Of a stretch of DNA of 64,000 nucleotides, positions 10,223 through 50,329 are shown piece after piece. Made by a program: the position numbers and the translations under genes. Source of the DNA: an uncultured Chloroflexia bacterium (lineage in GTDB: Bacteria > Chloroflexota > Limnocylindria > Limnocylindrales > CSP1-4). Positions within the stretch are counted from its first letter, which is position 1. The number at the start of each line of letters is the position of its first letter. The stretch covers positions 96,001-160,000 of the forward strand of contig CAVVCZ010000002.1 of NCBI GenBank assembly GCA_963746845.1. Direction: 5' to 3'. The notes under the pieces are model-generated. The model did no database searches and was not told the origin of the DNA. It saw nothing but the letters and a program-made list of their open reading frames with translations.

Positions 10223-10229
10223 CGCCCGA

Positions 10230-10258
10230 TAGATGCACGAGACCGCCGGGGTGATTCA
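10230..10258 (-). promoter_or_regulatory. Putative ECF autoregulatory leaderless promoter TGAATC-N17-CATCTA
   Basis: CATCTA lies 7 nt before ATG 10222; the same -10 precedes the paralogous ECF at 24835. Confidence 0.5.
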
Positions 10259-24694: not shown

Positions 24695-24749
24695 AGTGAA
24701 CCACGTGGACACTCTGGTGTCAACTGTAGGTTCCATCATCAACTGTAGG
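24695..24749 (-). promoter_or_regulatory. Second copy of the XRE-associated operator/promoter
   Basis: Reverse complement reads CCTACAGTTGatgatggaaCCTACAGTTGACA, then N17-TTCACT. Confidence 0.75.
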
Positions 24750-24799
24750 CGACACGGATCGCGGGGACGTCCGCACCCGACACGATGCCCCGGACCGGG

Positions 24800-24828
24800 T
24801 GGGACACTTCGGCATCGAGGGGCATCTA
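24800..24828 (+). promoter_or_regulatory. Putative ECF leaderless promoter TGGGAC-N17-CATCTA
   Basis: CATCTA lies 6 nt before ATG 24835; no RBS. Confidence 0.45.
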
Positions 24829-24834
24829 CCTCGC

Positions 24835-25395
24835 ATGTCGGACATCGCCGTGCAGGACGGGACAGCTCGAAGCGCGACCGCTCTCGACGCGACCGTGCGG
24901 CTTGCCGCCCGCGGCGACGAGGCTGCCTTCGATCGGCTCGTCTCCGAGCACCACGCGGCGATGTCTCGCGTCGCCTTCGTGATCTGCGGCGACGCCGAGG
25001 TCACGCGTGACGTCGTCCAGACCGCCTGGTCGACTGCCTGGCGTCGCCTGCACACGTTGCGCGACCCCGAGCAGGTCCACGCCTGGCTGATCGCGATCGC
25101 GGCGAACGAGGCGCGCCAGTCGCTCCGCCGCCAGCGCCGGCGTCCGGTCGTCGACATCTCCGACGCCCTGGACCACGGCGCCGGCGGCGATCCCGCCGAC
25201 ACGATCGATCTCGTCGACCTGCAACGGGCGCTCAGCCGCGTGAGCCCGGACGACCGACGGCTCCTGGCCCTCCGGTTCGTCGCGGGGTTCGATTCGACCG
25301 AGATCGCCCGCCAGATCGGCGGCTCGGCCTCCGGCGTCCGGAGCCGCCTCGCGCGGCTCATCGATCGACTGCGAACGGACATCGACCATGGATGA
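24835..25395 (+). CDS. ECF sigma factor (paralog of 9668..10222)
   Basis: GDEAAFDRLVSEHHAAMSRVAFV; LRDPEQVHAWL; LRFVAGFDSTEIA. Confidence 0.92.
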   Translation: MSDIAVQDGTARSATALDATVRLAARGDEAAFDRLVSEHHAAMSRVAFVICGDAEVTRDVVQTAWSTAWRRLHTLRDPEQVHAWLIAIAANEARQSLRRQRRRPVVDISDALDHGAGGDPADTIDLVDLQRALSRVSPDDRRLLALRFVAGFDSTEIARQIGGSASGVRSRLARLIDRLRTDIDHG

Positions 25396-27793
25396 GCGGA
25401 TGAGCTTCGAAGCGCGCCTCGCCGACGCATTCGCCCGGTACGCCGACCTGGCGCCGGTCGCGGTCGACGGCTCGATCGCCGCAACCGCGATCGCGGCCGG
25501 CGGACGGCGCGGGTTCACGATGCCGTGGCCGCGAACTCGACGAGCGGTCGTCTGGGCGACCCTTGCCCTGCTCCTCGTGGCGCTCCTCGCCGCGCTCGCG
25601 GTCGGGGCGCTCGTGAGCCGGCACGACCGGCTGCCGGGTGCCTTCAGCCAGGCCGGTCCGAGCCAGATCCAGTTCGTCTCGGCGACCGCCCTCCTCGGCG
25701 ACGGCCGGGTTCTCGTCCTTGGAGAGAACGGCTACGCGGCGGACAATTCGTCGATCCCCGCCCGCGTGGAGCTGTTCGACCCTCGTACGTCGACGTTCGC
25801 GCCAACCGGCTCGATGGCCGCCCCGCGGTACAACGTCACGGCGACGACGCTCCGCGACGGGCGTGTCCTGGTCGCGGGCGGCGCCTGGACACCGCCTGGC
25901 GCGGGCGAGACCTCCGTCGCGACGGCCGAGCTCTACGACCCCCGAACCGGGTCATTCACGCCGACCGGGAGCATGGGTACCCGGCGCAGCCAGCACACCG
26001 CCACGCTGCTGGCCGACGGACGCGTCCTCGTGCTTGGCGGGATGACGTCGACGAACTCCGAGACGGCCTACATCTACACCGCGGAGATCTACGACCCCGC
26101 GACCGGGGTCTGGACCGCGGTCGGCTCGATGCGGGAGCACCGGTTCCTGTACTCGGCGACGCTCCTCCTCGATGGCCGCGTGCTCGTGGCAGGTGGCTGG
26201 GACGAGAACGGCAACGACCTGCGGTCGGTCGAGCTGTTCGATTCGTCCAGCGGCACCTTCCGGGACGGCGGGGAGATGACCGGCAACCGGCGCAACCAAG
26301 GCGCCGCCCTCCTGCCCGATGGCCGCGTGCTGCTCGTCGGCGGCGCGACCGGGAACTTCGACAGCTCCTCGGCGGAGCTGTACGACCCGGCGACGGGCCG
26401 CTCTGTTCTGACGGGCTCCCTGATCACCGGCAGGAGCGACGAATCGGCCACGATGCTCGCGGATGGTCGCGTCCTGATCGCGGGCGGCTGGAACGCGATC
26501 GGCAACCCCTTGAGCAGCGAGATCTATGACCCGGCCGCCGGCACGTTCCTGCGGGCGGCATCGGCAGCCAGCGATCACAGCCGGGTCGCGGTCCGTCTCA
26601 ACGATGGTCGCGTCCTGGTCCCGGGCTCGCGCAACGAGATCTTCGATCCGCTCGCCTCCACAGACGTGGCACCGGTCGCGCCTCGCCGGGACCGGACGTT
26701 CGTCCCGACGGGTCGCGCGCTCTACGACCGCACCGGCCATGTGGCGATGAGGCTGGCCGACGGCCGGGTGCTGCTCGTGGGCGGCCGCGAGTCGCGCGAC
26801 GGGGCCTTCGAGGACAACCGAGGGGGACCGAGCGCGGACGTCTTCGATCCGAGCGCCGGCTCGTTCAAGTGGATCGGCCCATTCGCATCCGGGGGCCAGC
26901 CCCAGGTCAGCAGCACCGTCCAGCTCCCCGACGGCCGCGTGCTGGCGCTGGCCCAGCAGCACGTCCATCGCCAGGGTCCCATCTGGGAGATCTACTCGTT
27001 CGATCCGGCGACCGGACACGTCTCGTTCGATGGCCAGATCGCCTCGGAGGCCGAGGTGGAGCGGTCCGTCCGCATGGTCGAGCTGTCGGACGCACGCGTC
27101 CTCGTCCTTGGCGCACCTCTGACGCCGCAGGCGATCCCGAACGAAGACATGGTCGTGTATCGGCTCGATCGGTCGCCAGAGCCTTCGACGATCGTCCACT
27201 CGGCCGACAGTCTCACGAAGATCGGCGACCTCCCGGGCTGCGGCAACATCACGGACGTCGTGGTCGGCGCGGGGGACCGGGTCGCCGTCGCCTGCCTCGC
27301 TCCCGATGCCGCCATCTCGTCGCTCTTCCTGTTCGACCCGTCGACGGGTGCCACGACGCGGCTTGACGCTCCACTCGGTGTGGGCCCCGCGGTCCTTGCT
27401 CGCCTCGCGGACGGTCGCGTTCTGGCAGCGGCGGGCTCCGGGACGACCAGCCTCCTGATCGTCGACGTTTCGACGGGCGCCTCGACGATGGTCGGCTCGA
27501 CGGTGATTGCCGCGCGCGATCCGTCCGCGTCGCCGACGGCGCCGGGGATGACCTTGACGCTCCTGGCAGACGGCCGTGTCCTGATCCTCAGCGGCATCGA
27601 CGCGAGCGTCTTCGATCCCGCCACGAACGACGTCCGTCAGGTGCCCGGACCTACGGCGTTGCGGATGGGCCAGACCGCGACGCTCCTCGACGACGGTCGG
27701 GTCCTCGTGTTCGGCGGGACGACCTGGCCGGCCGACACCGGCGTGCCCACGCCCCCGAGCGCAGAGATCTTCGATCCCGCCGCGATCCCCTGA
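25388..27793 (+). CDS. Single-pass membrane Kelch-repeat protein, putative anti-sigma/sensor
   Basis: MDERMSFEARL N-terminus, TM, repeated LxDGRVLVxGG..AELYDP; ATGGATGA overlap with the sigma gene. Confidence 0.85.
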   Translation: MDERMSFEARLADAFARYADLAPVAVDGSIAATAIAAGGRRGFTMPWPRTRRAVVWATLALLLVALLAALAVGALVSRHDRLPGAFSQAGPSQIQFVSATALLGDGRVLVLGENGYAADNSSIPARVELFDPRTSTFAPTGSMAAPRYNVTATTLRDGRVLVAGGAWTPPGAGETSVATAELYDPRTGSFTPTGSMGTRRSQHTATLLADGRVLVLGGMTSTNSETAYIYTAEIYDPATGVWTAVGSMREHRFLYSATLLLDGRVLVAGGWDENGNDLRSVELFDSSSGTFRDGGEMTGNRRNQGAALLPDGRVLLVGGATGNFDSSSAELYDPATGRSVLTGSLITGRSDESATMLADGRVLIAGGWNAIGNPLSSEIYDPAAGTFLRAASAASDHSRVAVRLNDGRVLVPGSRNEIFDPLASTDVAPVAPRRDRTFVPTGRALYDRTGHVAMRLADGRVLLVGGRESRDGAFEDNRGGPSADVFDPSAGSFKWIGPFASGGQPQVSSTVQLPDGRVLALAQQHVHRQGPIWEIYSFDPATGHVSFDGQIASEAEVERSVRMVELSDARVLVLGAPLTPQAIPNEDMVVYRLDRSPEPSTIVHSADSLTKIGDLPGCGNITDVVVGAGDRVAVACLAPDAAISSLFLFDPSTGATTRLDAPLGVGPAVLARLADGRVLAAAGSGTTSLLIVDVSTGASTMVGSTVIAARDPSASPTAPGMTLTLLADGRVLILSGIDASVFDPATNDVRQVPGPTALRMGQTATLLDDGRVLVFGGTTWPADTGVPTPPSAEIFDPAAIP

Positions 27794-28990: not shown

Positions 28991-29218
28991 ATGAAGAAGC
29001 GCCTGCTCGTGTCGGCCCTGTGGTTCTTCGCGATGTGGAACGTCGGTGCGCTCATCGCGGACCTCTTCGGCTTCTCGCAGGCCCTCGCGCCGATCCTCGG
29101 GGTCGCGGCCGCGCTGATCATCGGCGTCGACCCGCGCGGGATCCTGTGGAACGTCCCCGCGAAGGAGACCGCGAAGGCCCCGCAGGCCCGGATCGACACG
29201 ATCCAGACGCAGGTCTGA
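28991..29218 (+). CDS. Small membrane protein (tandem paralog 1)
   Basis: KR..LWFFAxW...DP..LW shared with the next ORF. Confidence 0.7.
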   Translation: MKKRLLVSALWFFAMWNVGALIADLFGFSQALAPILGVAAALIIGVDPRGILWNVPAKETAKAPQARIDTIQTQV

Positions 29219-29508: not shown

Positions 29509-30651
29509 TCAGCGGACCAGCTGGATGGCGCCCGAGTAGGTGACGAGCAGGTTCGGGTCCGGCGAGTCGTACGGGTTGCCGGTCGCCGGATCGAGTCCGA
29601 GCCGAAGAACGCCCTCGATGTCCTTGCCTCCCTTGATGTGGACGATCTCGAACGCCGAGTAGCCGACGATGTGGTAATAGCCGTTGCTGCCGTTGCCGTT
29701 TGCGGTGTCCCAGATCGGAACCCAGACCCACAGGTTGTTCGTCTCGACGTAGTCCACGCCCGGCGTCCCGTCATTGACAGACGCCTTGTTGCCCGGAAGG
29801 CTCCCGATGTCATTGCCATTTCCGGCGGCCGCCGAGGCGCTGACGCTCGTGCAGCAGCCGTACGTGTTCGGCGGCGCCGGCGGCGTCCCCCACTCGGTAT
29901 CGAGGAACGGCTTGCTGTTGGAACAGCCGCCCGACGAGCCCTGGCCAAGACCGAACGGGTCGTTGTTGGCATCCGGTCCGCTGCAACCGAACTTCAGCCA
30001 GCCGAACCCACCCGGGAGGTTCAGGGCTCCGGGCGTCAGGTGCTGGGTTCCGCACGACTCGGCCGTCTGTCCGGCCGGGCAGGTGGGGAAGGCTCCGGCA
30101 CCCTTGACGGAAGCAAGCGACACGCCGATCGGGACGACTCCGCCGCCGCCGCCGGTTGACGGCGAGATGGCGACCGCATTGGCACTGGCGATCCAGTTGT
30201 TGACGCCGATGAGACCGAGGAAGAACGGCCGCCACGAGGTCTGGGCGACGAGGGAAACGCCCTGCGCGGTCACGGGAACCTTGCCCGCAAGGCCCGGGTC
30301 GCCCACGTACGTCAGTCGGGTACCTGAACGGTCGACGTACCGCGGGCCGGTCGCAGCGTCGAACGTGATGGGCTGGGCGTGGTTCGACGCGAGAACGGCG
30401 GTGATCGCGCCCTGGACATTCCCGTCTGCTCCATTGACGGTGTCACCGAGCCGGGCCAGGGCAACGACTCTCGCGCCGGCAGTCGCGGCGAAGTCTGCGG
30501 CGTTCTGCGCCGTGCGTCGCTGGGCGAACGCGAACCCTCCGTCGACCACGAGCCCGATGACGAGGACGAGTGCGATCAGCGCCAAGGCAAACAGGACGAT
30601 CATCTGGCCCCGAGCGCGGCGAGCGGGGATGGGCATGCTGTTGTTCCTCAC
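29509..30651 (-). CDS. tadG: TadG-like pilus tip protein, cassette 1
   Basis: RGQMIVLFAL TM, VVDGG..QRRTAQNAADFAATAGA; Cys/Gly-rich C-terminal domain. Confidence 0.8.
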   Translation of the reverse strand: MRNNSMPIPARRARGQMIVLFALALIALVLVIGLVVDGGFAFAQRRTAQNAADFAATAGARVVALARLGDTVNGADGNVQGAITAVLASNHAQPITFDAATGPRYVDRSGTRLTYVGDPGLAGKVPVTAQGVSLVAQTSWRPFFLGLIGVNNWIASANAVAISPSTGGGGGVVPIGVSLASVKGAGAFPTCPAGQTAESCGTQHLTPGALNLPGGFGWLKFGCSGPDANNDPFGLGQGSSGGCSNSKPFLDTEWGTPPAPPNTYGCCTSVSASAAAGNGNDIGSLPGNKASVNDGTPGVDYVETNNLWVWVPIWDTANGNGSNGYYHIVGYSAFEIVHIKGGKDIEGVLRLGLDPATGNPYDSPDPNLLVTYSGAIQLVR

Positions 30652-31206
30652 CTAGTTGATCGCCATGGACGCTGACGCGGAGCGAGCGACGGAGCCGATG
30701 ATCACCGCGGCAATGGGCGTGATCGGTCGATAGGTGAACGAGATCCGCACGGACACGATATCGCCGGGCTTCTTCCGGAACACGTGGCGGGCGATGCTGC
30801 CCAATTGCCGGTCGGGGGGCTGCCCGCAGCGTCGCACCGTAGATCCACGCTGGCGATGGTCCCCACGCCAGCCGTTTCGCGGTTCACGGCGTTCGTCACG
30901 TCAGTCAGGAGGTTGGCCGGCGCGTTCGGGCAGACGTGAGCTCCAGGGGTTGATGGTTGGATTGATGGCTGCCGCGGTCGCGACGCAGCTCGGGTCATCG
31001 GCGACCGTCTTCCCGATCCAGCCGGCTTCAACGGCGCCGACTCGAGCACCCTCGCGAGCAGCCTGCGACAGCACGCTGTCGGTGAAGACAAAGCGGCCAC
31101 CGTCGATGAGCCCGAACAGGATCAGCAGGAACACGGGCAGGACCAGCGCGGTCTCGACCAGCGCTTGCCCGCGCCGCGAACTGGTACGCACTCGGTCAGG
31201 GACCAT
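30652..31206 (-). CDS. tadE: TadE-like minor pilin, cassette 1 (frameshifted 30780-30920)
   Basis: RGQALVETALVLP..AAREGAR; ends VSVRISFTYRPITP..SMAIN. Confidence 0.75.
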
Positions 31207-31219
31207 CGAGGCGTCAGGT

Positions 31220-32038
31220 CTACTTGCCAAGGGTCAGTACCGGCTGACTGAAGGTGTCCGAGGACCCACTTCGAGAGACCTTGAGCGTCACGGTGTACAA
31301 GTCGCCTGCGACGGAAAATCGTGACTGGGTGATGCTCGTTCGTTCGGGCCCGGTGCTGCCGTCGCCGAAGTCCCAGAGCCACGCGGTCACTGCGCACCCG
31401 GACGGCGGAGCGGGGGTCGAAGCGTCCGAGAACACCACCGGCTTGTTCTTCTTGGATTGGCTGAAGGTGAAGTCCGCAACGATGGCGCACGGGTCCGGTG
31501 TCGGCGTCGGGGCGGGTGTCGCCGCGGGAGTCGGGGCGGGGTTGTACACGGCCGAAGTCGCGGAGGCCGTCATGGTCAGCGTTCCGAACATGCCCCCGAT
31601 GATCGGCGTCAGGAAGGTGAATGGCCGGCTGACGGCAACGGTGACCTGGTTTCCCGTCCCGCTGCTGGTTGCCACCGCGGTCGAGCAGCTGATAACGACC
31701 GGCGGGGCCGCGGTGGTCTGACAGACTGGGGGATTGACGGTCAACGCACCCTCGCCGCCCTGGGTCTGGGTATTCGCCTCCTGGCCTGCACGCGACGCGA
31801 TGCTTGCCTGCGGCACCGTGGGGTCGATTGCCACATATGCCGCGGCCTCTCGCGCGGCATTCGTGACCTCGACATATGAGAAATAGAGCCGTCCAAAGTC
31901 GATCGCAACGAGCAGCAGCAGGATCATGATCGGCAGGATCAGCGCGAACTCCGCCAGGGCCTGCCCCCTCGTGGGAGTCTCGCTGGCGCGGGGCTGACGT
32001 CGACCGGAGGATCGGCGCGTCGGTGTCGGAGAGTCCAT
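31220..32038 (-). CDS. tadE: TadE-like minor pilin with C-terminal PKD domain, cassette 1
   Basis: RGQALAEFALILP..NAAREAA; Pro/Thr linker; WLWDFGDG..YTVTLKV. Confidence 0.82.
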   Translation of the reverse strand: MDSPTPTRRSSGRRQPRASETPTRGQALAEFALILPIMILLLLVAIDFGRLYFSYVEVTNAAREAAAYVAIDPTVPQASIASRAGQEANTQTQGGEGALTVNPPVCQTTAAPPVVISCSTAVATSSGTGNQVTVAVSRPFTFLTPIIGGMFGTLTMTASATSAVYNPAPTPAATPAPTPTPDPCAIVADFTFSQSKKNKPVVFSDASTPAPPSGCAVTAWLWDFGDGSTGPERTSITQSRFSVAGDLYTVTLKVSRSGSSDTFSQPVLTLGK

Positions 32039-32102
32039 AGGTTTGCTCGTGTGCGACTTTGGTGCGGTACAGAAGAGTCCGGGGCGGATGATCGGCTGCG
32101 GA

Positions 32103-32124
32103 CCTTGCAACGAGCCTTGCAACG
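32103..32124. promoter_or_regulatory. CCTTGCAACG direct repeat (12-bp period) upstream of Tad cassette 1
   Basis: Exact copies at 32103-32112 and 32115-32124. Confidence 0.6.
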
Positions 32125-32180
32125 GCGCACCCGTGCACCGATCGGCAGGACCATCGGCGGCCCACCACTGGACCGGAGTC

Positions 32181-33711
32181 CTACTCTGCCGCTCCGCCTT
32201 CCTCCGGCGGCTCACCGGGCAGGAACACGCTGAACGCCGCGCCGCGGCCGGCCGCGGCCGGCTCGAGGACGAGGTCGCCGTCCATCGCCCGGCACAGCTC
32301 CCGCGACACGTAGAGGCCGAGCCCGCTGCCGTCGTCGGCGGTCCGCTCCGCCCCTCGCTCGAACCGCCGGAACAGCCGCGCCCGGTCCGAGTCCGTGACG
32401 CCCGCCCCGTGGTCGACGATCGTCAGCCGGATCCTGGGCTCGCCGGCGGTCGTGTCCGGCGCGATCTCGATGTCGATCGGGGACCGCTCGCCGTACTTCA
32501 CCGCGTTGTCGAGGAGCGCCCACAGGACCTGGTCGAGCTGGTCGAGATCCGCGACTGCGAGCCAGCCGTCCGACCGGTCGTCCACCGTGAACGGGACGCC
32601 GCTGACCGCGAGCGCCTCCCACGCCCGGCGCACCGGTGAGGCCAGGGCGACGACCTCGCCCCGCGGCCGGAGCGCGCCGGACTCCAGCCGGGTCACGGTC
32701 AGCAGCTGGCGGACCATCCGCGACAGCCGATCGGTCTGCTCGACGATGATCCCGAGCCGCCGGTCCGGCTGGTCGCGGGCGAGCTGATCCGCGGTCGCGC
32801 GGATGCTCGTCAGCGGGGTCTGGAGGTTGTGGCTGACCCCGCGGAGGAAGTCGTCCTTCGCGGCGTCCAGCTCGAGCAGCTGGGCGTTCTGGGACTCGAC
32901 CTGGGCGAAGAGCTGGGCATTCCGGATCGCGACCGAGATTTCGCTGGCGTACAGCTCGAGGAGGTCCTGGTCGGCCCGGTCCCACGTGCGGGTCGCCGGC
33001 AGGTGTCCCGCGAGCAGGCCGATCGCCTCCGTCCCGAGGTGGAGATCCGCCCGGACCGGCAGGGACTCGCCGGGGATCCGCACCTCCCGCGGGATCGTCG
33101 TCGGGTCGACGAGGAGGACCGACGCGTCGATCATCCCGAAGGCGGTCCGGGCGTTGCTGGCCGCGCGACCCGCGATGAACTCGGGGCCGTCGCGCGGCGA
33201 GCCGCTCTCGATGGCCTCGAGGATCCGCCCCAGCTCGCGGTTGCGTCGCTCGAGGTCCGCGGCGAGGCGGTTGTGGCACTCGGCGAGCTGCGCCAGCTCG
33301 TCCTCGCCGGGCACGATGATCGGGGTCGACAGGTCGCCGGCCGAAGTCCGCTCGACGGCTGCCGCGATCGCGCGGAGCGGGGCGGTCAGGTCCGCGGCCA
33401 GGAGGTAGGCGAGAAAGACCGCGATCATCGCCGCGAACACGAGGACCAGCAGGAGCAGCCGCCCGGCCGTGGCGGTGTCGATCTGGCCGATGAGGAAGAC
33501 GACCGCCCCGAACAGGGCCAGCGGGATGATCGCCGCGGCGATCAGCCCGGTCATCAACCGCGTCCGGAACGACGGGTTGATCCCGAGGATTCCGCCGCCC
33601 GCGGTGGTGCGTGCGTCGGGCGGGGTCGGTGTCGTCGGTGCCGACGTCCGGGAACACGAGCCCGTCGTCGCCGGGGTGGTCGGCGTCGTAGGCCCGGCCC
33701 TGGTCAGGCAT
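32181..33711 (-). CDS. Sensor histidine kinase, TM-TM-HAMP-GAF-like-HisKA-HATPase (frameshift near 33600)
   Basis: SHNLQTPLTSI, LDNAVKY, DHGAG, GSGLGL; start overlaps the response regulator stop. Confidence 0.88.
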
Positions 33712-34459
33712 CGCCGGCGTCGTCGGCGCGGGGAACCCCGGGTGGATCGTTCGTCGCGATGGCCAGCCGGTAGCCGACGCCGCGGACGGTCTGGAGGTGG
33801 ACGGGGCGGTTCGGGTCGATCTCGACCTTCTGGCGGAGCCGGCGCATCGTCACCCAGACGTAGGACGGGTCGGCGTCCTCCGTCTCGGCCCAGCCGCGTG
33901 CCAGCAGCGTCTCCGTGGTGACGGTCTGGCCGAGGTTCGCGGCCAGCGCGTACAGCAGGCGCGACTCGGTCGGGGTCAGCTGGACGATGTCCTCGCCGAC
34001 CGTGGCCTCGCGGCGGTGCAGGTCGAGGGTCAGGTTCGGCCCGAGGACGAGGCTCTGCCGGGGGACCTTGTCGCCGAGCCGGCGCAACACCCGGTTGATC
34101 CTCGCCCGCAGCTCGGGGTAGTGGTAGGGCTTCGTGACGTAGTCCTCGGCGACCTCCTCGAGGAGATCGGCCTTGGAGTCGCCGGCATCGATCGCCGACA
34201 GCACGATGATCGGCAGGTCGGCCCGGCCCTTGATCTCGCGGGCGAGGGTGAGGCCGTCCATCCGCGGCATCATCATGTCGATCACGAGGAGGTCCGGCCA
34301 GCCGCTCCGGAGTCGGCGGATCGCCTCGTCGCCGTCGCGCGCGGTCTGGATCTCGAAGCCGTCGGACCGGAGCTGGTCCGCCAGGAGGACGAGCAGGTTC
34401 GGGTCGTCGTCGACGATCAGGATCCGCGGCGCCGCGTGGCCGGATCCGCCGCTCAGCAT
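33704..34459 (-). CDS. OmpR-family response regulator
   Basis: ILIVDDD, IDMMMPRMDG, DYVTKP, LTPTE, LQTVRGVGY. Confidence 0.92.
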   Translation of the reverse strand: MLSGGSGHAAPRILIVDDDPNLLVLLADQLRSDGFEIQTARDGDEAIRRLRSGWPDLLVIDMMMPRMDGLTLAREIKGRADLPIIVLSAIDAGDSKADLLEEVAEDYVTKPYHYPELRARINRVLRRLGDKVPRQSLVLGPNLTLDLHRREATVGEDIVQLTPTESRLLYALAANLGQTVTTETLLARGWAETEDADPSYVWVTMRRLRQKVEIDPNRPVHLQTVRGVGYRLAIATNDPPGVPRADDAGDA

Positions 34460-34542
34460 CGTTCGAGGATACCGGACGGCGCATGGCGGCAACGGACCCG
34501 GACCATTGGGCCGGACCATCGTCCGGGGCCAAGGGGCCCTTT

Positions 34543-34560
34543 TTGCAATGGACGGTGCAA
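34543..34560. promoter_or_regulatory. TTGCAA-N6-GTGCAA repeat upstream of Tad cassette 2
   Basis: 12-bp period, 54 bp before GTG 34614. Confidence 0.5.
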
Positions 34561-34613
34561 GGCGCCTCCCATACGGTCGGTTCGTCAGCCCATCTGACTC
34601 GGAGAGCCAAACC

Positions 34614-35291
34614 GTGAGGCATCCCTTCCATCGATCCGGTGCGCATGCCGGGCCACCTGCACCGACCGACGGCCGATCGACGCCGTTCGGCTTCGGGCGG
34701 GCCCGCGCGCGCCGACGACGGTCGGGCCAGTCCCTCGTCGAGTTCGCGCTCGTCGTGCCGATCTTCTTCACCCTCCTGACCGGCATCATCGAGTTCTCGC
34801 TGGCCCTCAACGCCGTCCTCGCCGTGAACTTCGCGAGCCGCGACGCCGCGCTCATCGCCTCCGAGGGTGGCAACTCCGTCGGATCGGACTGCGCGATCCT
34901 CCGGACCGTCCAGGATCGCATCGGCCCGCCCGCCGACGACGACAAGATCATCGACGTCACGGTCTACCGGGCGAACACCGTCGGCCAGGCCGTCCCGGTC
35001 GGGTCCCCCGACAAGAACGTCTACGCGCGCGGCGGATCGATGGACTGCCCGTTGCCCGGCGACCCGACGTCGACGATCGCGTTCCACCTGGTCGGCTCCG
35101 CGGGCTATCTCGAGACGACCCGCTGCAACACCCTCGCGGGCTGCGGCGGCGGACGGACGCTCGACCACATCGGCGTCGAGATCCGCTACACGTACGAGTG
35201 GCACACGCCGCTCAAGGCGTTCATCGGGCTCTCGGGCAACGGCTATACCGTCGACAAGGCCAACTCGATGCGCATCGAGCCGATCCTGTGA
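34614..35291 (+). CDS. tadE: TadE-like minor pilin, cassette 2
   Basis: SGQSLVEFALVVP..NFASRDAA; ends MRIEPIL. Confidence 0.85.
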   Translation: MRHPFHRSGAHAGPPAPTDGRSTPFGFGRARARRRRSGQSLVEFALVVPIFFTLLTGIIEFSLALNAVLAVNFASRDAALIASEGGNSVGSDCAILRTVQDRIGPPADDDKIIDVTVYRANTVGQAVPVGSPDKNVYARGGSMDCPLPGDPTSTIAFHLVGSAGYLETTRCNTLAGCGGGRTLDHIGVEIRYTYEWHTPLKAFIGLSGNGYTVDKANSMRIEPIL

Positions 35292-35901
35292 TCCGCTCGC
35301 TGGCCGTTCGACCCTTTGGCGCTCGTCGTCGCCGGCGGACCCGCGGGCAGTCGCTCGTCGAGTTCGCGATCGGCGTGCCGCTGTTCCTGCTCCTCCTCCT
35401 GGGGATGGTGGAGTTCGGGTTCGTGTTCACCCACCACATCGGGCTCGAGTACGCCACGCGCGAGGGCGCCCGGATGGGCTCCGCCCTCGCCTCGGGGACC
35501 TCGCAGGTCGCCTGCACGCGACGTCGACAACAACGTCATCGCCGCGCTCCAGCGCGTCGTGACGTCGCCCGGCTCGCAGATCAAGGTCGGGAACATCAGC
35601 CAGATCCAGATCTACAGCGCGAACGCGAGCGGCAACCCGGTCGGCTCGCTGATCAACACGTGGGTCCCGGGCACGGGCCCGACGCGTCGACGGCGTCGCG
35701 CTGCTGTTCCGCAACACGAGCGTCGGTTGGCCCGCCTGCCCGGTGGGCAACCGGGACAACGGCGCGTCCCCCGACTCGATCGGGGTCAGCCTCACCTACA
35801 CCTACGACTTCGTGACCCCGCTGGGGAACTTCGTCGCCGCCTTCGGGACGAGCCACCTGACCATGACCGACAAGACGGTCATGGCACTGAATCCGAGCTG
35901 A
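35288..35901 (+). CDS. tadE: TadE-like minor pilin, cassette 2 (frameshifts near 35515 and 35685)
   Basis: RGQSLVEFA..LEYATREGAR; ends DKTVMALNPS. Confidence 0.78.
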
Positions 35902-35907
35902 GTGAGC

Positions 35908-38086
35908 ATGCCTGAGATCGCCGTCCGCACCTCGGCCCCGAGTTCGGGGCTCCGACCGCACGAAGCCGCCGCGGTCGCGCGGCCAGATCGTGGTCATGCT
36001 GGCGATGTCGATCATCGTCCTGTGCGGGATGGTGGCGCTCGTCATCGACGTCGCCTGGTACTGGTCGTCCTCGCTGCGGGTCCAGCGCGCCGCCGACGCG
36101 GCGGCCCTGGCCGGCGTGGTCTGGCTGCCCGGCAACCCGACGACGGCCTATTCCGTCGCGAATGCGGAAGCGACGAAGAACGGCTTCACGAACGGCGTGG
36201 CGGGGACGGTGATCACCACCCTGAAGGACGCCACGAACGACCGCCGCCTGAACGTCACGATCAGCACGCCGGTCGACACGTTCTTCATGCGCGTGTTCGG
36301 CATCACCTCGATCCCCGCCGTCCGCTCGTCGAAGGCGGAGTTCGTCCTGCCCGTGCCGATGGGCAGCCCGCAGAACTACTACGGCGTCGGGTTCTACGAG
36401 GGTCTGACCGGCGGTGCGAACCAGACGACGGGCCCGAACCTGCCCACGTCGAGCCTCAGCAGCGGATCGTTCGCCCAGTGGGCGAGCCGGACCAACGGCT
36501 ACACGAGCAACAACCAGTACGCCACCGGGACGGTCGGCCAGGGAACGGCCGGTCAGACCCAGGCCTACGGGACGTTCGGCCTGAACGTGCCCGGGACGAA
36601 CACGATCAGCGGCATCGAGATCCACATCGAGGCCAAGGCGAGCGACCCCGCGGGGTGCAAGCTCGCCGTCGAGCTCTCGAAGGACAACGGGACGACGTGG
36701 ACGTCGACGAACAAGATGATCGACCTGACCGGCAGTGACCCGGCATCGCCCTGGCCGCTCCTCGGTGGCTCGAGCGACCTGTGGGGCACGACCTGGACGG
36801 CGCCCGACTTCGCCGACGGCAAGTTCCTCGTCCGTCTCCGGGCCTTCGACCCGGAGGCGACGAACGACGCCGCGAACAGCAACGCAGCCGCCTGCAACAA
36901 CACCGCGATCGTGTCGACCGACGCCCTGAACGTGACCGTCTACACGAAGACGGCGCGCGTCAAGACGCTCCTCAACGTCAACGACCCGCTCAGCGGCACC
37001 CCGCTGACGCCGCAGAACATCTGGGGCGCGGCGTTCACATCGGGCGGCACCCGCGAGAACGGCGACGAGTTCGACCCGATGTACCTCGGCAACGGTGCCG
37101 GCGGGGCGAAGGGCGACCCGAACCCCAACTACGATCCCGACGGCGTCGACTACACGGTCGAGTTCAGCGGGGGCGCGAGCGGCGGCCAGGTCCAGCTCTT
37201 CGACCCGATGTTCTGCGCGACCGGCGACAACGGCCACGGCGGCTCGTACGGCGCCGGCGACCACTGGACCGACCATGCGCCGTCCCAGGTCACCGCGCCC
37301 GTCGCGGTCACCTACCGCCTGTACGACATGCACGGCACGCCGCTCGACAACAGCGACGACGGCGCCCCGATCGCGACCCTGAACTACGACCCGGGCACGA
37401 AGACCATGGGCGACTTCAGCGGCGACTTCGGGACGCCGGCCAACTCGACCGACCCCAACGGCCAGGACTGCTCGACCAACCCGGCCCACAACCACTGGGT
37501 GGCGCTCGCCTCGGGTCTCGCCCAGGGCATGTACCGGGTCAACGTCAACACGACCGTCGACGCGGGCAATGCGAACGTCGGCGCCGAGAACCTGTACTCG
37601 ATCTACGTCAACGCGACCGGCGGCAAGGCCCGCGTCTACGGTGGCGGGCGGATGGTGGCCTACGCGAACATGGACGCCGCGACGAGCACGTTCTACTTCG
37701 CCCAGATCGAGAAGGTCCACGCCGGCAAGACGATGGTCATCTCGATCTTCGACCCGGGCGAGTCGTCCGGCGACGCGTTCCTCCGGATCAAGAGCCCGGA
37801 CAACAACACCTACACCAACGTCAACTTCACGTGGGCCGCCGATGACGGCCGAACCGGCTCGGGCACCCAGATCCAGACCTCGGTCGGCGGGGCGGCCCAG
37901 TTCAACAACCACCTCGTGACGATCTCGATCCCGCTGCCGGCGACGTACGGCTCGGTCGGCCTGACGCCACCGGGCGAGACGGAGCCCGGCTGGTGGAAGA
38001 TCGAGTACCAGATGAACGGCGCCAACGACACGACGACGTGGGGCGTCAACATCAACGGCAACCCGGTCCACCTGATCATCCCCTGA
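35908..38086 (+). CDS. tadG: Large TadG-like tip adhesin, cassette 2 (frameshift near 35960)
   Basis: RGQIVVML TM, VIDVAW..VQRAADAAALAG, long beta-rich T/N/G domain; ends GNPVHLIIP. Confidence 0.83.
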
Positions 38087-38116
38087 CCGATCCGCGATCG
38101 GGCACCGCGGAATCAA

Positions 38117-38145
38117 GAGGCTGACCGGCGATGCCGGTCAGCCTC
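38117..38145. terminator. Hairpin between the convergent Tad cassettes
   Basis: GAGGCTGACCGGC-gat-GCCGGTCAGCCTC 13-bp stem; followed by gttcgttc on + and ttgatt on -. Confidence 0.75.
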
Positions 38146-38176
38146 GTTCGTTCGTGACGGAAGACGATCCCGCGGA

Positions 38177-38287
38177 TCAGCTGACGTCCGGCGGTTGGCC
38201 GTACAGGTAGATGAACGTCGCCAGGGCCGCGGCGAAGATCACGACCAGGACCGTCATCACGATGACGGCGATCAGCGGGCGACTCAT
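38177..38287 (-). CDS. 36-aa single-TM peptide
   Basis: MSRPLIAVIVMTVLVVIFAAALATFIYLYGQPPDVS; GC3-rich codons; too short for the ORF track. Confidence 0.55.
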   Translation of the reverse strand: MSRPLIAVIVMTVLVVIFAAALATFIYLYGQPPDVS

Positions 38288-38312
38288 CGTTGCCAAGGTC
38301 AGCGCGTCCCGC

Positions 38313-40676
38313 TCACCCGGTCACGAGGTGGACGGGGTTGCCCCGGATGTTGACGGACCAGGTCGTCAGGTCGGTCGAGGGGTTGTCGTTGGAGTTCCCA
38401 CCCATCGAGTACTGGATCTTCCACCAGCCCCCTTCGGCCTCACCGGTCGGCTTCGGCGCCTTGTACAGGTTGTCGATCTTGATGCACAGCCGGAGCCAGT
38501 AGCCGTTGTACAGGCCGCCGTTGCCGTTGCTCGTCTGGATGGTCTGGGTCGGCGTTGCTCGAGTTCTGGTCGCAGACGAAGGTGGACGGGATCGTGGTGC
38601 CCTGGATCGACTTGTAGTAGAAGGTCGCCTTCTGGTAGCCGCTCGTGCGGTCGGCATCAGGATCGACAGGTCGGCGGGCAGCTGGCCCGTGTCGCCCGGG
38701 TCCCACAGGTCGATGTCCATCCACTTGCCGGCGTACTCCTTGTCGATCTGGGCGAGATAGAACGTCGACGTCTGGTCGGCCGGCAGCGGGAAGTACGCCT
38801 CCATCGAACCGAGGCCGTGGACCCGCGGCGTGCCACCGGAGGCCTTCGTCCAGAGCGCGAACGCGTTCAGCCCGGTGCTGTCGCTCTGGTCGTCGCCGCC
38901 ACTCTGCGACTCCGACGTCGTGTGGACGCGATAGGTCCCCGGCACCGAGGCCGCCGGCAAGCTGCCACCACCCCGACTGCGTGCCCCCGGGCGTCTTGTG
39001 CCAGCTCGCGTTGGCGCAGGACGCCGGTGAGCCGGTGTAGCCGTTGCTGTTGTCGCCGTCGAGGTTCGGGTCGTAGAGATAGCTGCGGGTGAACGTGGTG
39101 CCGGACGTAGCGACCATCGTGTCGTCGGACCGGTCGTAGAGCGTGTCCTTGGTGTTCCACAGCTCGTACAGGGCCGACACCGGGTGCTTGCTGGATGCGC
39201 CGTTCGAGCCGCCCACGGTCCAGTACTCGCCGGTGCCCTCCCCGAATCGACGTCACAGAAGCCCGGGTCGAAGATCCAGACCTCGCCAAGCGACGCACCG
39301 TTCGGGATGTCGACTTCGTAGTTGTAGTAGTTGTCGGGGTCATAGGCGGGGTTCGTCGCCGACTTGCGGGTCGCGTAGCCGGTCATGAAGGCGTCGCCCT
39401 GGATCGACGGTGAGCCGTAGCTGTTCATCGCGCCCCAGAAGAGCTGCGGGGCGAGGACGGTGCCGTCCGGCGCCTTGACCGGCTGAGGCGACGGCGGGTT
39501 CTCGTGACGGTCGTCGTCGTCCTCGTGTAGTTCACCTGGGCCTGGAGGCGTCGAGCGCGACCCCACGGTCCACGCCGTTGTTGCCGGTGGACCCGCAGCC
39601 GGTGCCCTCGACCCAGCGCAGCCGGACCTCGAAGATCGTGGTCGTCGAAGTCGTTGTACGTCCAGGATGGCCGCGAACGCTGCGATGTCCGCTACGTCGA
39701 CGGACGACGAGCGTCTGGTCGGTGGTGCTCGTGATCGGGACGATGATCGGATTCAGCCAATGCGCCTGCGACGGCACGGCGCCGCCGCCCCAGAGGACCT
39801 GGATCTCGACCTGAGCAGTTCGTCTTCGCGTTCTGGGTGTTGGTCGGCGTGAGGTGGATGTCGCGGAGCCGGACCTCGACCTGGGTGATCTGGATCTGGC
39901 GTCGTCGTGGTGACGTTGCCGTTCGTGGTCGTGCCGGGTGTCGGGATGTTCGAGCTGCCCTGGAGGCCGAAGTCGCGCCAGATCTGCAGTGTCGCCGTTG
40001 GTGTTCTCGATGCGCGTACTGCGGGTTGTCGTTCTCGTCGTTCTCGGCGCGACGTCGGGGCTCGTCCCAGGTCTGCGAATCCGGCAGGTTGCCCTGGTTG
40101 TTGCCGTTCCGGGTGATGCGTGTCGTTCGGCCGCTCGAAGCCCGTGTTGCCCGGACCGGCTGGCCCGTGTGGTCGTCGTGAACGTCGGGCACGTTGTACA
40201 GGCCGACGCCGTAGTAGTTCTGCGGGCTGCCCATCGGAACCGGGAGGTTGTACTCCGCGTCCGACTGCCGGCTCACCATCACCGTCGGGAAGCCGACGAG
40301 CCGCATGAAGAACGTCTGGACCGGCGCCGTGATGAGGACGTGCATCCGGTGCAGGTTCTGGGGATCCTGGTTCGGCGCCACGACCGTCGTGCCGCCCGGG
40401 ACGTAGCCGTTCTTCTTGGCCTCCGCGAGGGCCAGACCGATCGCCCTTGCCGGGGTCGTTCGGGAGGGTCACGGCGCCCGCCAGGGCCGCGGCGTCCGCG
40501 GCGCGCTGGACCCGCAGGGCGTTCGACCACAGCCAGCTCACGTCGATGACGATCGCGACCATCAGGAGGAGGAGCGTGATCGCGCTCGCGAAGATGACCA
40601 GGACCTGACCGCGCGGGCGCTTCCGGCCCGCGAGCGTCCTGGCGGGACCGGGCTGGGTCAGGGACACGCTGTTCAA
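38313..40676 (-). CDS. tadG: Large TadG-like tip adhesin, cassette 3, many frameshifts (error or pseudogene)
   Basis: RGQVLVIFA..VQRAADAAALAG; PVPMGSPQNYYGVG; GWWKIQY; GNPVHLVTG, spread over several frames. Confidence 0.75.
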
Positions 40677-40702
40677 GGGACACCGGACGCTCCTCCATCC
40701 GA

Positions 40703-41328
40703 TCAGGGGTTCAGGGCCATGATGGTCCGATCCGAGATCGTGATCTGGGTACCCGCGCTGTTGAGGAGCACGCCGAGGGGCGTGATGCTCTTGTAGGTGT
40801 AGGTCAGGGAGATCCCGATCGAGTCCGCGGCCGGAACCTTGACGCCGGTTGCACGCGCTCCAGCGGTCCCGCCGGTCTGCTTCCAGAGCAGCTTCGTTCC
40901 GTCGACGTGTCGCCGCTGGCGCTCGGGACCCAGCTGTTGAACGAGGTCCCGACCTGGTTGCCGTTGGTGTCCGCCTTGTAGATCCGGATCTCGGAGACCT
41001 GGCCGGGCGGCACCTGCGACCCGGGCGACGTCAGGACGCGCTGGACCGCGGCGATGATCTGCCAGTCGATGGGCTCGACGCCGTTGATCACGGCGCCGCC
41101 GCACGGCGGGATCGGACCACTGCCGAGGGCGGCCCCGACCCGCGCCCCCTCGCGCGTCGCGTACTCGAGGGTCAGGTGGTGCGAGAACACGAACCCGAAC
41201 TCGAGCATGGCGAAGAGCAGGATCATGAACGCCGGGACGAGGATCGCGAACTCGACCACGCCCTGACCGCGCCGGCGGCTCCGCGCGTCGTCCGCTCCGG
41301 GCGCGGCGAGGGCCCACGGCCGGGTCAC
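40703..41328 (-). CDS. tadE: TadE-like minor pilin, cassette 3 (frameshifts 40850-40910)
   Basis: RGQGVVEFA..LEYATREGAR; ends DRTIMALNP. Confidence 0.78.
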
Positions 41329-41921
41329 AGGATGGGCTCCATCCGCATGACGTTGCCCTTGACCAGGGTCGACGTCCCGTTCGTCGTGAAGAACCCGCCG
41401 ATCGGGGTGCGCGACTTGTAGAGGTAGGTGACCTCGACCCCGATCTGGTCGATGTTGGTCCGCGTGGCGCCGAGGTTCAGACAGCCGGCGAGGATGTTGC
41501 AGCGGTTGGCCGGAGGATAGGCCTGCTGCCCGTTCACCGGCGAGTACGGGACCGTGATCGTGGTCCCGCCGGGCTGCTGGCAGGTCTTCGCGCCGCCGCG
41601 GGTGAAGATCGACGATTCGAGAGCGTTGCCGGCCTTGTCGGACCGGAAGATCCGGACCTGGGTCACCTGCGCCCGGTCCGCCGGGGCAGTGATGCTCGTC
41701 TCGACCGCAGCGAGGATCAGGCAGTCCGCGTCGCCCTCGTCACCGGCCTCGGCCGCGACGAGCGACGCCTCGCGGCTGGCGAAGTTGATGGCCAGCACCG
41801 CGTTCAGGACCATCGCGAACTCGACCACTGCGGTCAGCAGCAGGATGAAGATCGGGATGACGAGCGCGAACTCGACGAGTGCCTGACCCTTGCGTTCAGG
41901 CTTCCGCCGACGAACCAACAA
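41325..41921 (-). CDS. tadE: TadE-like minor pilin, cassette 3
   Basis: KGQALVEFALVIP..NFASREAS; ends MRMEPIL; GAGGGG RBS then TTG. Confidence 0.85.
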   Translation of the reverse strand: MLVRRRKPERKGQALVEFALVIPIFILLLTAVVEFAMVLNAVLAINFASREASLVAAEAGDEGDADCLILAAVETSITAPADRAQVTQVRIFRSDKAGNALESSIFTRGGAKTCQQPGGTTITVPYSPVNGQQAYPPANRCNILAGCLNLGATRTNIDQIGVEVTYLYKSRTPIGGFFTTNGTSTLVKGNVMRMEPIL

Positions 41922-42029
41922 TGGTTGCCCCCTCGGCCGTCGGTTCCATGGATGAGGACGTGCCACTGGGCGATGAAATCGGAAGGAAGGGCGGGAACCG
42001 ACTGAGGCGCGGATGCTCCGGCGCGGACA

Positions 42030-42055
42030 TTGCAATCAACCTTGCATCGTTGCAA
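42030..42055. promoter_or_regulatory. Three TTGCA boxes upstream of Tad cassette 3
   Basis: TTGCAA 42030, TTGCAT 42042, TTGCAA 42050; flanks GGAC and GGCGCAC also occur at cassette 1. Confidence 0.6.
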
Positions 42056-42149
42056 TGGCGCACCGTGCGGGACGGGAATGGTGCGGTCCGGTGCGGATGA
42101 GGCCAGTACGTCGGTCCGGGGTGCCACCGGGACCATCGGCGGGCGACGG

Positions 42150-48937: not shown

Positions 48938-50329
48938 GTGACGGCGACCGACGTCCCGGTCGATGCGGGCAGCGGTGCCGCGGGCGGTACCCGGATCGGG
49001 CGTGCGCTCGGCGCCCTGACGCCATCGGGTCGGGCATCCGTCCCGGTCAGCTGGGCGCTCTACGACTTCGCGAACACGATCTACAGCTACGCGATCGTGT
49101 CGTACGCGATCGGCCTGTGGGCGGTGGATCGGCTGGGTCCCGCCGACGGCCAGTTCTGGGTCCTGCTGGCCGGCGCGATCAGCGTCCTCCTGAACGCGAT
49201 CGTGTCGCCGGTGCTCGGGGCGATGAGCGACCGGACCGGCGGCCGGATGCGCTACCTCCTGTTCTTCACGGTCATGACGATCATCGGCAGCGCCGCGATC
49301 GGCCTGACGAACTCCGCCGCGATCGGCCTGACGTTGTTCGCGATCGCCAACTTCGGGTACCAGGCAGCGCTGATCTACTACGACGCGACGCTGCCGGTCG
49401 TGTCGCTCCGGGCGTCCCGCGGCCGGGTCTCCGGGATCGGTGTCGCGGTCGGCTACCTTGGCACGATCGTCATCGCCTTGCTGATCCTTGTCCTGGACTC
49501 GAAGGCCGGACCCCTCACGTTCTTCCTCGCGGCCGGGCTGTTCGCCATCTTCGCGGTCCCGATCTTCGCGATCGTCCGCGAGCCCGCGAAGGCGGATCCG
49601 GAGCCGTTCCGGATGCGCGACGTGACCCGCTCGTGGGCCCAGCTCCGCGAATCGATCCGGCACGCGATGGCGGTCCCGGGGCTCGGCCGGTTCCTGCTCG
49701 GCCGGTTCTTCTACACGGACCCGGTCAACACCGTGATCGTCGTGATGAGCGTGTTCGCGACCCAGGCCATCGGGCTCAGCCAGAGCATGGCCAACGTCGT
49801 CCTGCTCGTGCTCACCGTCGTCGCGGTGTTTGCGAGCTTCGGCTGGGGCCAGCTCGTGGAGCGGATCGGGCCGAAGAAGACGCTGCTGATCGTCCTCGGC
49901 ACGTGGTGCGTCGGGCTCGTGGTCGCGGGCGCGGTCCTCAGCCTGCCGACGTTCCTCCTGGGTGGCGCGCTCCTCGGAGCGGGGCTCGGTGGCGTCTGGA
50001 CCTCGGACCGGGTGTTCATGCTCCGGCTGTCACCGCCCGAGCAGGTCGGAGAGTTCTTCGGGCTGTACGGGATCGCCGGCAAGTTCAGCGCCGTGACCGG
50101 GCCGATCCTGTACGGCGTGATCGTGTCCACCCTGCTCGATGCGGGCTGGGGCTCGCTCGCATACCAGGTCGGGATCTTCAGCTTCCTGATCCTGCTCGTG
50201 ATCGGCGTCTGGCTGCTCCGCGGGGTACCCGAGCCGCCGGCCGACCACTGGGACCGCGTTCTCGAGGACCTGCCCGGACCGCCGCCGGAGCGATTGGCGC
50301 CGATGACCGCGCCGACCGCGCCGCGCTGA
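48938..50329 (+). CDS. MFS transporter (UMF1/ATG22-like)
   Basis: SWALYDFAN, GRVSGIGVAVGYLG, GEFFGLY..GK; about 12 TMs. Confidence 0.88.
   Translation: MTATDVPVDAGSGAAGGTRIGRALGALTPSGRASVPVSWALYDFANTIYSYAIVSYAIGLWAVDRLGPADGQFWVLLAGAISVLLNAIVSPVLGAMSDRTGGRMRYLLFFTVMTIIGSAAIGLTNSAAIGLTLFAIANFGYQAALIYYDATLPVVSLRASRGRVSGIGVAVGYLGTIVIALLILVLDSKAGPLTFFLAAGLFAIFAVPIFAIVREPAKADPEPFRMRDVTRSWAQLRESIRHAMAVPGLGRFLLGRFFYTDPVNTVIVVMSVFATQAIGLSQSMANVVLLVLTVVAVFASFGWGQLVERIGPKKTLLIVLGTWCVGLVVAGAVLSLPTFLLGGALLGAGLGGVWTSDRVFMLRLSPPEQVGEFFGLYGIAGKFSAVTGPILYGVIVSTLLDAGWGSLAYQVGIFSFLILLVIGVWLLRGVPEPPADHWDRVLEDLPGPPPERLAPMTAPTAPR

Follow-up and report, generated by a model that had tools for sequence, protein, structure and literature searches.

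Gene organization of the minor-pilin region

The DNA analysed here, a 64-kb stretch of contig CAVVCZ010000002.1 (the window, about 70% G+C), comes from a host taken to be a soil or freshwater, Limnocylindria-like member of the Chloroflexota. Genes were called by the periodicity of G+C at third codon positions and then identified by domain searches. The region of interest contains three sets of Tad-type minor-pilin genes, here called cassettes 1, 2 and 3, which are grouped around a two-component regulatory system. Each cassette encodes two small TadE-like subunits and one large TadG-like subunit. These three TadE-TadE-TadG triplets had been proposed in a sequence-only reading of the window, and Pfam finds them at the same places and on the same strands: PF07811 matches the six small genes (E 1e-10 to 3e-17; 41.6-62.7 bits against a gathering cut-off of 22.9) and PF13400 the three large ones (E 3e-8 to 4e-9; 33.4-37.1 bits against 22.3, in TadG3 on the N-terminal piece). 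Both matches span the N-terminal helix only.

Cassette 1 lies on the minus strand. Its first gene, TadE1a (31220-32038; 272 residues; TadE E 3e-14), is uninterrupted, carries the leader motif G/QALAE and has a C-terminal PKD domain (E 5e-6). It is followed by TadE1b (30652-31206; TadE E 3e-17 on the N-terminal piece; G/QALVE), which has two apparent frameshifts, and by the uninterrupted TadG1 (29509-30651; 380 residues; PF13400 E 4e-9). Cassette 2, on the plus strand, consists of TadE2a (34614-35291; TadE E 3e-12; G/QSLVE), which is uninterrupted but of uncertain start codon, TadE2b (about 35300-35901; TadE E 1e-14 on the N-terminal piece; G/QSLVE; two +1 frameshifts) and TadG2 (35908-38086; about 725 residues; PF13400 E 5.5e-8), which has one +1 frameshift and is open from 35990 to 38083 (698 residues). 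Cassette 3, on the minus strand, converges with cassette 2 and has an endonuclease III gene upstream of it. It comprises the uninterrupted TadE3a (41325-41921; TadE E 1.3e-10; G/QALVE), the second TadE-like pilin TadE3b (40703 to about 41328; TadE E 1.7e-14; G/QGVVE) and TadG3 (38313-40676; PF13400 E 3e-8 on the N-terminal piece; 14-16 frameshifts).

The response regulator and histidine kinase reported between cassettes 1 and 2 are likewise found there by Pfam. The regulator, of the OmpR/PhoB type (33704 to about 34459, minus strand), has a receiver domain (Response_reg, E 3e-27) followed by a winged-helix Trans_reg_C domain (E 7e-21), and the sensor kinase (32181 to about 33554, minus strand) has HAMP (2.5e-9), HisKA (1e-13) and HATPase_c (1.7e-21) domains. 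The regulator, the kinase and cassette 1 are co-directional, with the kinase immediately upstream of cassette 1, and could form a single transcription unit, while cassette 2 is transcribed divergently from the regulator.

Several smaller features accompany these genes. A GC-rich hairpin with a 10-bp stem (38119-38143), read from the sequence between the convergent cassettes 2 and 3, is a likely terminator; it is missing from the output of a consensus terminator scan. The combined promoter and terminator scan gave no promoter-like site, and terminator-like sites were no more frequent than in shuffled sequence. Downstream of TadG3, a small open reading frame (ORF) with high third-position G+C content (GC3), found by six-frame translation, encodes a 36-residue membrane peptide with a single helix (38177-38287, minus strand). 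On the other side of the region, convergent with cassette 1, a gene with a GC3 of 0.96 (28991-29215, plus strand) encodes a membrane protein of 75 residues with two helices. Both small ORFs were considered as Flp pilins and rejected, neither having a G-x4-E site.

Leader sequences and TadG architecture

All six TadE translations contain the prepilin site G/Q-x-x-x-E, and all three TadG translations lack the Glu at +5, having R-G-Q followed by Leu, Met or Ile at that position (R-G/Q-M-I-V-L in TadG1, R-G/Q-I-V-V-M in TadG2 and R-G/Q-V-L-V-I in TadG3); both features had been pointed out in the sequence-only reading. In the part of its text available, Herrou et al. (PMC12075869) define the class III leader by the same cleavage Gly and Glu at +5 (G/xxxxE).

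In two respects the sets differ from the earlier description: clear paralogy is limited to cassettes 2 and 3, and five of the nine genes are frameshifted. TadG1 belongs to a subfamily distinct from TadG2 and TadG3 (about 700-780 residues), to which its tblastn similarity is N-terminal only. Cassettes 2 and 3 form an inverted paralogous pair, with inverted repeats of 70-84% identity in the N-terminal coding parts. Between them, tblastn gives 42-45% identity for the first TadE, 52-64% for the TadG N-terminus and 31% for the TadG C-terminus. Recombination of a silent cassette, of the kind known for Neisseria pilS, is unlikely for cassette 3 because the two cassettes are only about 65-84% identical in DNA, and the same divergence led to the rejection of a fold-back assembly artefact as the origin of the inverted arrangement.

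TadG2 has more than 1100 homologues, among them relatives that are 98% and 90% identical. An AlphaFold2 model built on a 96-sequence alignment (predicted local distance difference test, pLDDT, 92) has a 42-residue N-terminal helix (residues 2-43) and a small sheet, followed by all-beta domains; as modelled, the N-terminal module is pilin-like and large extra distal domains are attached to it. Fold searches with the whole model and with its C-terminal 362 residues (pLDDT 86.5) gave only generic beta-sandwich or jelly-roll matches with TM-scores of at most 0.24, among them reelin repeats, AftD, BcsB, phage baseplate and viral capsid proteins, and these allow no specific fold assignment. Sequence-profile searches of solved structures with two family alignments gave no match, and the ESM Atlas held no usable match for the TadG C-terminal part. 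The VWA domain, which is found in many annotated TadG proteins, has no Pfam match in TadG1-3. A complex of intact orthologues from related locus L002 (TadG residues 10-345 with the mature forms of TadE-a and TadE-b, each supplied with an alignment) was predicted with a median score of 0.31, below the mark of 0.32 and below the score of one control.

The two-component system and a small membrane protein

By their domains, Response_reg and Trans_reg_C in the one and HisKA and HATPase_c in the other, the two regulatory proteins belong to the OmpR/PhoB family. No NCBIfam model places them more narrowly: the best for the regulator is MtrA (170 bits against a cut-off of 300), and for the kinase WalK (130 against 725) and MtrB (129 against 450). 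The topology read from the translation gives the kinase two N-terminal membrane helices separated by an external linker of about eight residues, followed by the HAMP domain, a weak GAF-like stretch and the catalytic domains. With almost no extracellular loop, the kinase probably senses a signal at the level of the membrane, perhaps the pool of pilins or a small membrane protein linked to the locus. Control of the cassettes by the regulator is likely from their relative positions.

The 75-residue protein encoded at 28991-29215 may be a partner of this loop-less kinase, its membership of the system being uncertain. It has no Pfam match. In tblastn it matches 12 related loci, including L002, L013, L015, L021-L025, L031, L042 and L064, where its homologues adjoin the kinase or a TadG1-type gene; L042 has two copies.

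Conservation and variation in related genomes

Related loci were retrieved from species-representative genomes with a profile of TadG2 homologues, and their building blocks, which were mapped by tblastn with the window proteins, proved to be the same throughout. Nearly all of the 78 loci obtained are labelled Chloroflexia, Limnocylindrales or Limnocylindria; a few bear the labels other Chloroflexota, Anaerolineae-type, Dormiibacterota or Sulfotelmatobacter. An uninterrupted full-length match to the TadG2 family is present in 61 of them, and TadE2a orthologues occur in most. The association of the regulator with the cassettes, on which the sequence-only reading depended, is conserved. With a threshold of 48% identity, 46 of the 78 loci have a regulator; among the 60 loci that are 20 kb or longer, 39 do. 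These orthologues are 75-97% identical to the window protein in 21 loci and 49-59% in 25, and the kinase is usually beside them.

The number and order of the pilin genes vary around this regulator pair. One TadG2-family gene is present in 45 loci, two in 25 and three in eight, so that 33 of the 78 loci have two or three TadG paralogues. L008 has the order regulator, kinase, TadE, TadE, TadG, TadG, TadG, L014 has two full sets and an extra TadG, and in L003 sets lie on both sides of the regulator pair. The form of TadE with a PKD domain, as in TadE1a, occurs also in L001. In L003, L004 and L060 a cassette is kept at the position of cassette 3, and TadE3a orthologues are found beside the endonuclease III gene.

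Three loci contain a further arrangement: in L013 (12282-17219), L020 (12270-15149) and L034 (86-2810), a TadE gene and a TadG-like gene with VWA and IPT/TIG domains adjoin cassettes of the TadG2 type, which indicates that these islands mix several types of putative tip.

The closest genome is that of L042, which is about 89% identical in DNA over cassette 2. Two further differences from it were noted. L042 has some 940 extra bases (7557-8500) between the regulator and cassette 2, and the window has an extra 1.2 kb (49071-50296) that covers much of a gene for a transporter of the major facilitator superfamily.

A constant base and variable heads

The TadG paralogues were compared module by module in intact relatives, with the first 136 residues, the middle domain and the C-terminal domain treated separately. 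Among paralogues of the same locus (L008, L014 and the pair L003_2/3), the N-terminal module is 76-94% identical, while the middle domain is only 25-39% and the C-terminal domain 36-54% identical. The third TadG of L003 differs from the other two also at its N-terminus (48-49% identity). A nearly identical N-terminal module combined with divergent heads is what would be expected of exchangeable tips on a common base. The near-identity of this putative docking module is possibly maintained by gene conversion.

In L008 and L014, one pair of TadE genes is followed by two or three TadGs whose N-terminal modules are 76-88% identical. This arrangement argues for a shared docking partner.

Tad machinery

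The sequence-only reading had found no flp or tadABC gene in the window. Pfam searches agree with this: neither the 24 ORFs searched at and near the region nor the 52 elsewhere in the window match T2SSE, T2SSF, Flp or Peptidase_A24. Nor do the related cassettes have machinery of their own nearby: Pfam found none within the 10-kb flanks of any of the 12 loci scanned (of the 78: L001, L003, L008, L013, L014, L034, L009, L020, L029, L038, L053 and L059).

Two ParA-like genes were noted in these searches. In L059 (17922-19256), about 6 kb from the cassette, a lone gene combines a receiver with an AAA_31 ParA-like domain, the architecture of TadZ/CpaE, with no other Tad gene nearby. In the window itself, a gene for a ParA/MinD-like ATPase (AAA_31; the best NCBIfam match, to a ParA partition model, is below cut-off) is followed by a gene for a GGDEF protein (566-2255). 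This ATPase has no receiver domain and is thus not a TadZ by domain content.

Frameshifts in the pilin genes

The sequence-only reading overlooked that five of the nine pilin genes are broken by frameshifts of ±1 nt, only TadE1a, TadG1, TadE2a and TadE3a being uninterrupted. The frameshifts were placed by frame plot and by frameshift-aware alignment of intact relatives to the window DNA. TadE1b has a +1 shift near 30918-30933 and a -1 shift at about 30767, from alignment to the orthologues of L049 and L024. TadE2b has +1 shifts at 35519 and 35685, both beside GTCGAC, placed with the intact L002 orthologue (64% identity). The single +1 shift of TadG2 is at about 35944, twelve codons past the ATG at 35908, and protein P0002, 98% identical to TadG2, is intact from the same ATG across this position. 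TadE3b has one to three shifts by alignment to its L003 orthologue, a clear one near 40908 beside GTCGAC and two doubtful ones. No corrected reading contains an in-frame stop.

TadG3 is the extreme case, with 14-16 single-base frameshifts. The TadG of L003 was too distant (about 40-44% identity) to serve as a reference, and P0122 and P0123 were used instead. Corrected against them, TadG3 is colinear from end to end with full-length homologues and has no in-frame stop in about 2.3 kb. The motifs conserved in these homologues are retained, and identity to the two reference proteins is 60-61%; its nearest database relatives by BLASTP are 53-54% identical, and none is near-identical. For the intact TadE3a, identity is 53% to P0266 and 57% to P0267, two proteins taken to come from the same contigs as P0122 and P0123. 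Corrected TadG3 is therefore as similar to its homologues as TadE3a is, which indicates that it has no excess of amino-acid divergence.

Frame breaks are not confined to the pilin genes or to this genome. In the window, the domains of an ABC ATPase (ABC_tran, about 11142), an Amino_oxidase (about 17548) and a Glyco_hydro_130 protein (about 20770) are each split over two overlapping ORFs, and a fourth split is probable in an AP_endonuc_2 gene (about 53435, beside GTCGAC). Among the relatives, TadE-b is in one frame in L002, whose contig has a k-mer name in the style of short-read assemblies, and in L003; in L001 and L042 it breaks at other positions, and in L042 the genes for the regulator, the kinase and glycerate kinase are fragmented too. 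The project that labels most of the related records is described, in the available part of its publication, as producing Nanopore-only assemblies polished once (PMC12313526).

The frameshift sites have a sequence preference. GTCG lies within 8-11 nt of 12 of the 17 mapped sites, against a background frequency of 0.24, and three sites are directly at GTCGAC. GATC or TCGA accompanies 11 of the 17 (background 0.31; binomial p 0.004). Such clustering at GTCG/GTCGAC and GATC/TCGA may be a base-calling signature linked to methylation.

Interpretation of the locus

The locus is read here, with somewhat more confidence than doubt, as a conserved island of Tad-type minor-pilin sets around an OmpR-type two-component system, in which the sets would provide alternative tips for one pilus and the frameshifts would mostly be assembly errors. 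The reading starts from what is observed at the locus and in its relatives, namely the gene identities and leader motifs, the paralogy, the synteny of the regulator pair, the lack of nearby machinery and the constant base with its variable heads. A location at the tip, a shared machine and regulation by the kinase and regulator would follow from the protein families, from gene position and from the Myxococcus precedent considered below.

In such a scheme, a prepilin peptidase would cleave each subunit after the conserved Gly, and two TadE subunits would assemble with one TadG into a small complex for the priming and capping of a Tad/Flp fibre, itself the product of a single machinery encoded elsewhere in the genome. 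The N-terminal pilin module of TadG would dock into the fibre base, while its variable all-beta distal domains would be displayed at the tip and set the binding target of the pilus. Likely targets of the kinase and regulator would be cassette 1, which lies downstream of them, and cassette 2, which diverges from the regulator.

A number of observations weigh against this reading. The Tad ATPase, platform protein, prepilin peptidase and Flp pilin are missing from the window and from the 12 scanned loci, so that the link to a Tad fibre comes from family names and leader motifs. No NCBIfam Tad model attains its cut-off on the proteins of the locus; the curated model TadE_Rv3655c gives 20.5-20.7 bits, where the cut-off is 40. 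No regulator is seen in 32 of the 78 loci, 21 of which are among the 60 of at least 20 kb, and the intergenic region between the regulator and cassette 2, aligned over five genomes, shows no convincing shared repeat to which the regulator could bind. Cassette 3 is an accessory piece that several relatives lack: L042, the closest of them, has 74 bases in place of window positions 38100-42145, and in L001, L002 and L024 TadG2 is followed directly by the endonuclease III gene. If the window's own entry is left aside, TadE3a has its nearest relatives at 81% and 69% identity. Finally, the frameshifts are unevenly spread: cassette 3 has 15-19 of them within 3.6 kb and cassettes 1 and 2 together have five, compared with about 3-5 over the 51 kb that lie outside the region. 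Uniform sequencing error does not predict such a distribution, and five GTCGAC sites within TadG2 are unshifted, so the motif alone does not cause frameshifts.

In one alternative the TadE- and TadG-like proteins form a short pseudopilus or membrane-anchored surface adhesins, independent of a long Flp pilus, and in its favour none of the 13 regions examined has flp or tadABC nearby. That no NCBIfam Tad model is matched at cut-off and that the PF13400 and PF07811 matches are limited to the N-terminal helix would also fit it, as would the VWA and TIG adhesin domains of related TadG-like proteins in these loci. It is nevertheless improbable. A class-III-type leader and its Gly cleavage site are retained in each of the nine genes, as is the Glu at +5 in the small subunits, and these features serve filament assembly. 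The constant set of two small subunits and one large one corresponds to the TadE/TadF/TadG sets that, in the text available for the Myxococcus study, are tied genetically to the Tad pilus (PMC12075869), and Tad pili are reported for other Chloroflexota.

Were each cassette served by its own Tad machine elsewhere in the genome, the sets would not be interchangeable. The different subfamily of cassette 1, with its 380-residue TadG1 and a TadE bearing a PKD domain, could serve another system, but nothing direct points to this. In every locus examined the cassettes group with each other and not with machinery, and the similarity of the N-terminal modules of TadGs sharing one TadE pair in L008 and L014 also speaks against separate machines, which are thus very improbable.

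The frameshifts may instead be real. Cassette 3, the TadE-b genes and perhaps TadG2 would then be pseudogenes and the island a decaying remnant, with at most the outer genes of cassette 1, TadE2a and TadE3a still working and the function of the pilus lost or being lost. The crowding of frameshifts into cassette 3, the stop in the out-of-frame stretch of TadE1b and the lack of any close relative of TadE3a or TadG3 in the protein collection all favour decay. The absence of cassette 3 from L042, L001, L002 and L024, taken with the lack of a TadE3a relative above 81%, also fits a dispensable, decaying copy. This alternative is unlikely, since corrected TadG3 has neither a nonsense codon nor a large deletion in its 2.3 kb, all events can be modelled as ±1 nt, its motifs are kept throughout with an identity to homologues not below that of intact TadE3a, and GC3 remains 0.93-0.97 in every piece of the broken frames. 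Unrelated genes of the window are frameshifted too, relatives with broken pilin genes are also broken in housekeeping genes, and a mutational process is not expected to target GTCG or GTCGAC. The density in cassette 3 and its accessory character could both be explained by thin read support in an island that varies between strains, as they could by the decay of a dispensable copy. Most of the frameshifts are thus probably long-read consensus errors, worst in the strain-variable cassette 3, true decay of that cassette being the less probable possibility.

If the sets do provide alternative tips for one pilus, a broader picture can be drawn, which is possible but stands on the doubtful side. Limnocylindria-like Chloroflexota would keep a library of tips for one Tad pilus under two-component control, with sets or single TadGs gained, lost and inverted at one hotspot while their heads diversify. 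The loop-less kinase would read the membrane pilin pool or a small partner protein, and so choose which tip is made.

Exchangeable Tad-pilus tips, should they be confirmed here, would not be confined to the predatory Myxococcota and would represent a general means of giving one adhesive fibre new targets, here in a Chloroflexota lineage known only from metagenome-assembled genomes. The conserved two-component link offers a testable handle on tip choice, a point that the available Myxococcus text leaves unaddressed, and a true tip library would mean regulated switching beyond the constitutive tip combinations of Myxococcus. The constant docking module and divergent heads form a natural data set for separating the parts of TadG that fit the fibre from those that bind the target. 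The broken genes also serve as a reminder that single-base indels of long-read metagenome assemblies can accumulate in variable surface-protein loci and mimic pseudogenes.

Other features of the window

Outside the pilin region, two gene pairs (7051-10255 and 24730-27790) each combine a sigma factor of the extracytoplasmic function (ECF) type with a Kelch-repeat protein of very large size, the stop-to-stop ORFs being 896 and 849 residues long. That the combination occurs twice suggests modules of a sigma/anti-sigma-like kind. At 16944-20246, genes for an amine oxidase, a DUF1365 protein and a methyltransferase resembling cyclopropane-fatty-acid synthase follow one another, a common lipid-modification trio.

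Comparison with known systems

Canonical tadE-tadF-tadG pseudopilin genes sit inside tad loci, as in Aggregatibacter, Pseudomonas and others, and Rv3654c/Rv3655c is an actinobacterial TadE-like pair. The window sets share with them the PF07811 and PF13400 helix domains, the G/xxxxE site on the small subunits and one large subunit per set. They differ in being three rather than one and in not adjoining tadZABC, flp or tadV; moreover, TadG1-3 have no VWA domain, and the NCBIfam TadE scores are far below cut-off.

A second point of comparison is the type IVa minor-pilin/PilY1 complex of Pseudomonas aeruginosa, whose fimU-pilVWXY1Y2E operon adjoins, and is controlled by, the FimS-AlgR two-component system. 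There, as in the window, a tip or priming set with a large non-core subunit lies beside a two-component system. The pilus class and protein families are different, however, only one set is present, and the regulator is of the LytTR type instead of the OmpR type. For Limnocylindria themselves, literature searches on pili found no account, with single passing mentions of pili at most.

The closest parallel is the Kil system of Myxococcus xanthus, and the earlier view that no such locus architecture had been described is overtaken by its publication in 2025 (PMC12075869). According to the text available for Herrou et al. (2025), M. xanthus has four paralogous clusters of TadE/TadF/TadG-like 'Tip' genes, three of them apart from kil-gene cluster II, and one Tad (Kil) pilus, for which alternative tips have been shown genetically; the TadE, TadF and TadG proteins of other bacteria are proposed there to form similar tips (PMC12075869). 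In that account, the KilL/KilM/KilN proteins of Tip1-4 resemble the window sets in three respects. Several paralogous sets occur per genome, mostly apart from the machinery; the TadG-like member is the backbone, with a variable C-terminal domain that has no solved structural relative; and the proposed role is that of exchangeable tips on one Tad fibre, which for the window is suggested by genes alone.

Each system also has its own distinctive features. The host of the window is a Chloroflexota, not a predatory myxococcote, and its sets lie side by side, in tandem or inverted, whereas those of Myxococcus are scattered, as far as the available text describes them. The window sets flank a conserved OmpR-type two-component system; in a term search of the text available for PMC12075869, neither two-component nor response regulator, histidine kinase or Chloroflex turned up. 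The distal domains of the window TadGs belong to an unrelated all-beta family, some relatives of the window combine one TadE pair with two or three TadGs, and the link of the Myxococcus tips to a partner resembling a type III secretion system has no counterpart in the window. The tip1-4 profiles are reported, again in the part of the paper available, to be restricted to Myxococcota (PMC12075869), and membership of the window sets in the Kil Tip family by homology is unlikely. What is new here is the host lineage, the side-by-side hotspot, the conserved OmpR-type system, the presence of several TadGs per TadE pair and the family of the head domains. On the evidence available, the window locus appears to resemble the Myxococcus Kil Tip system in kind, rather than being a homologous member of it.

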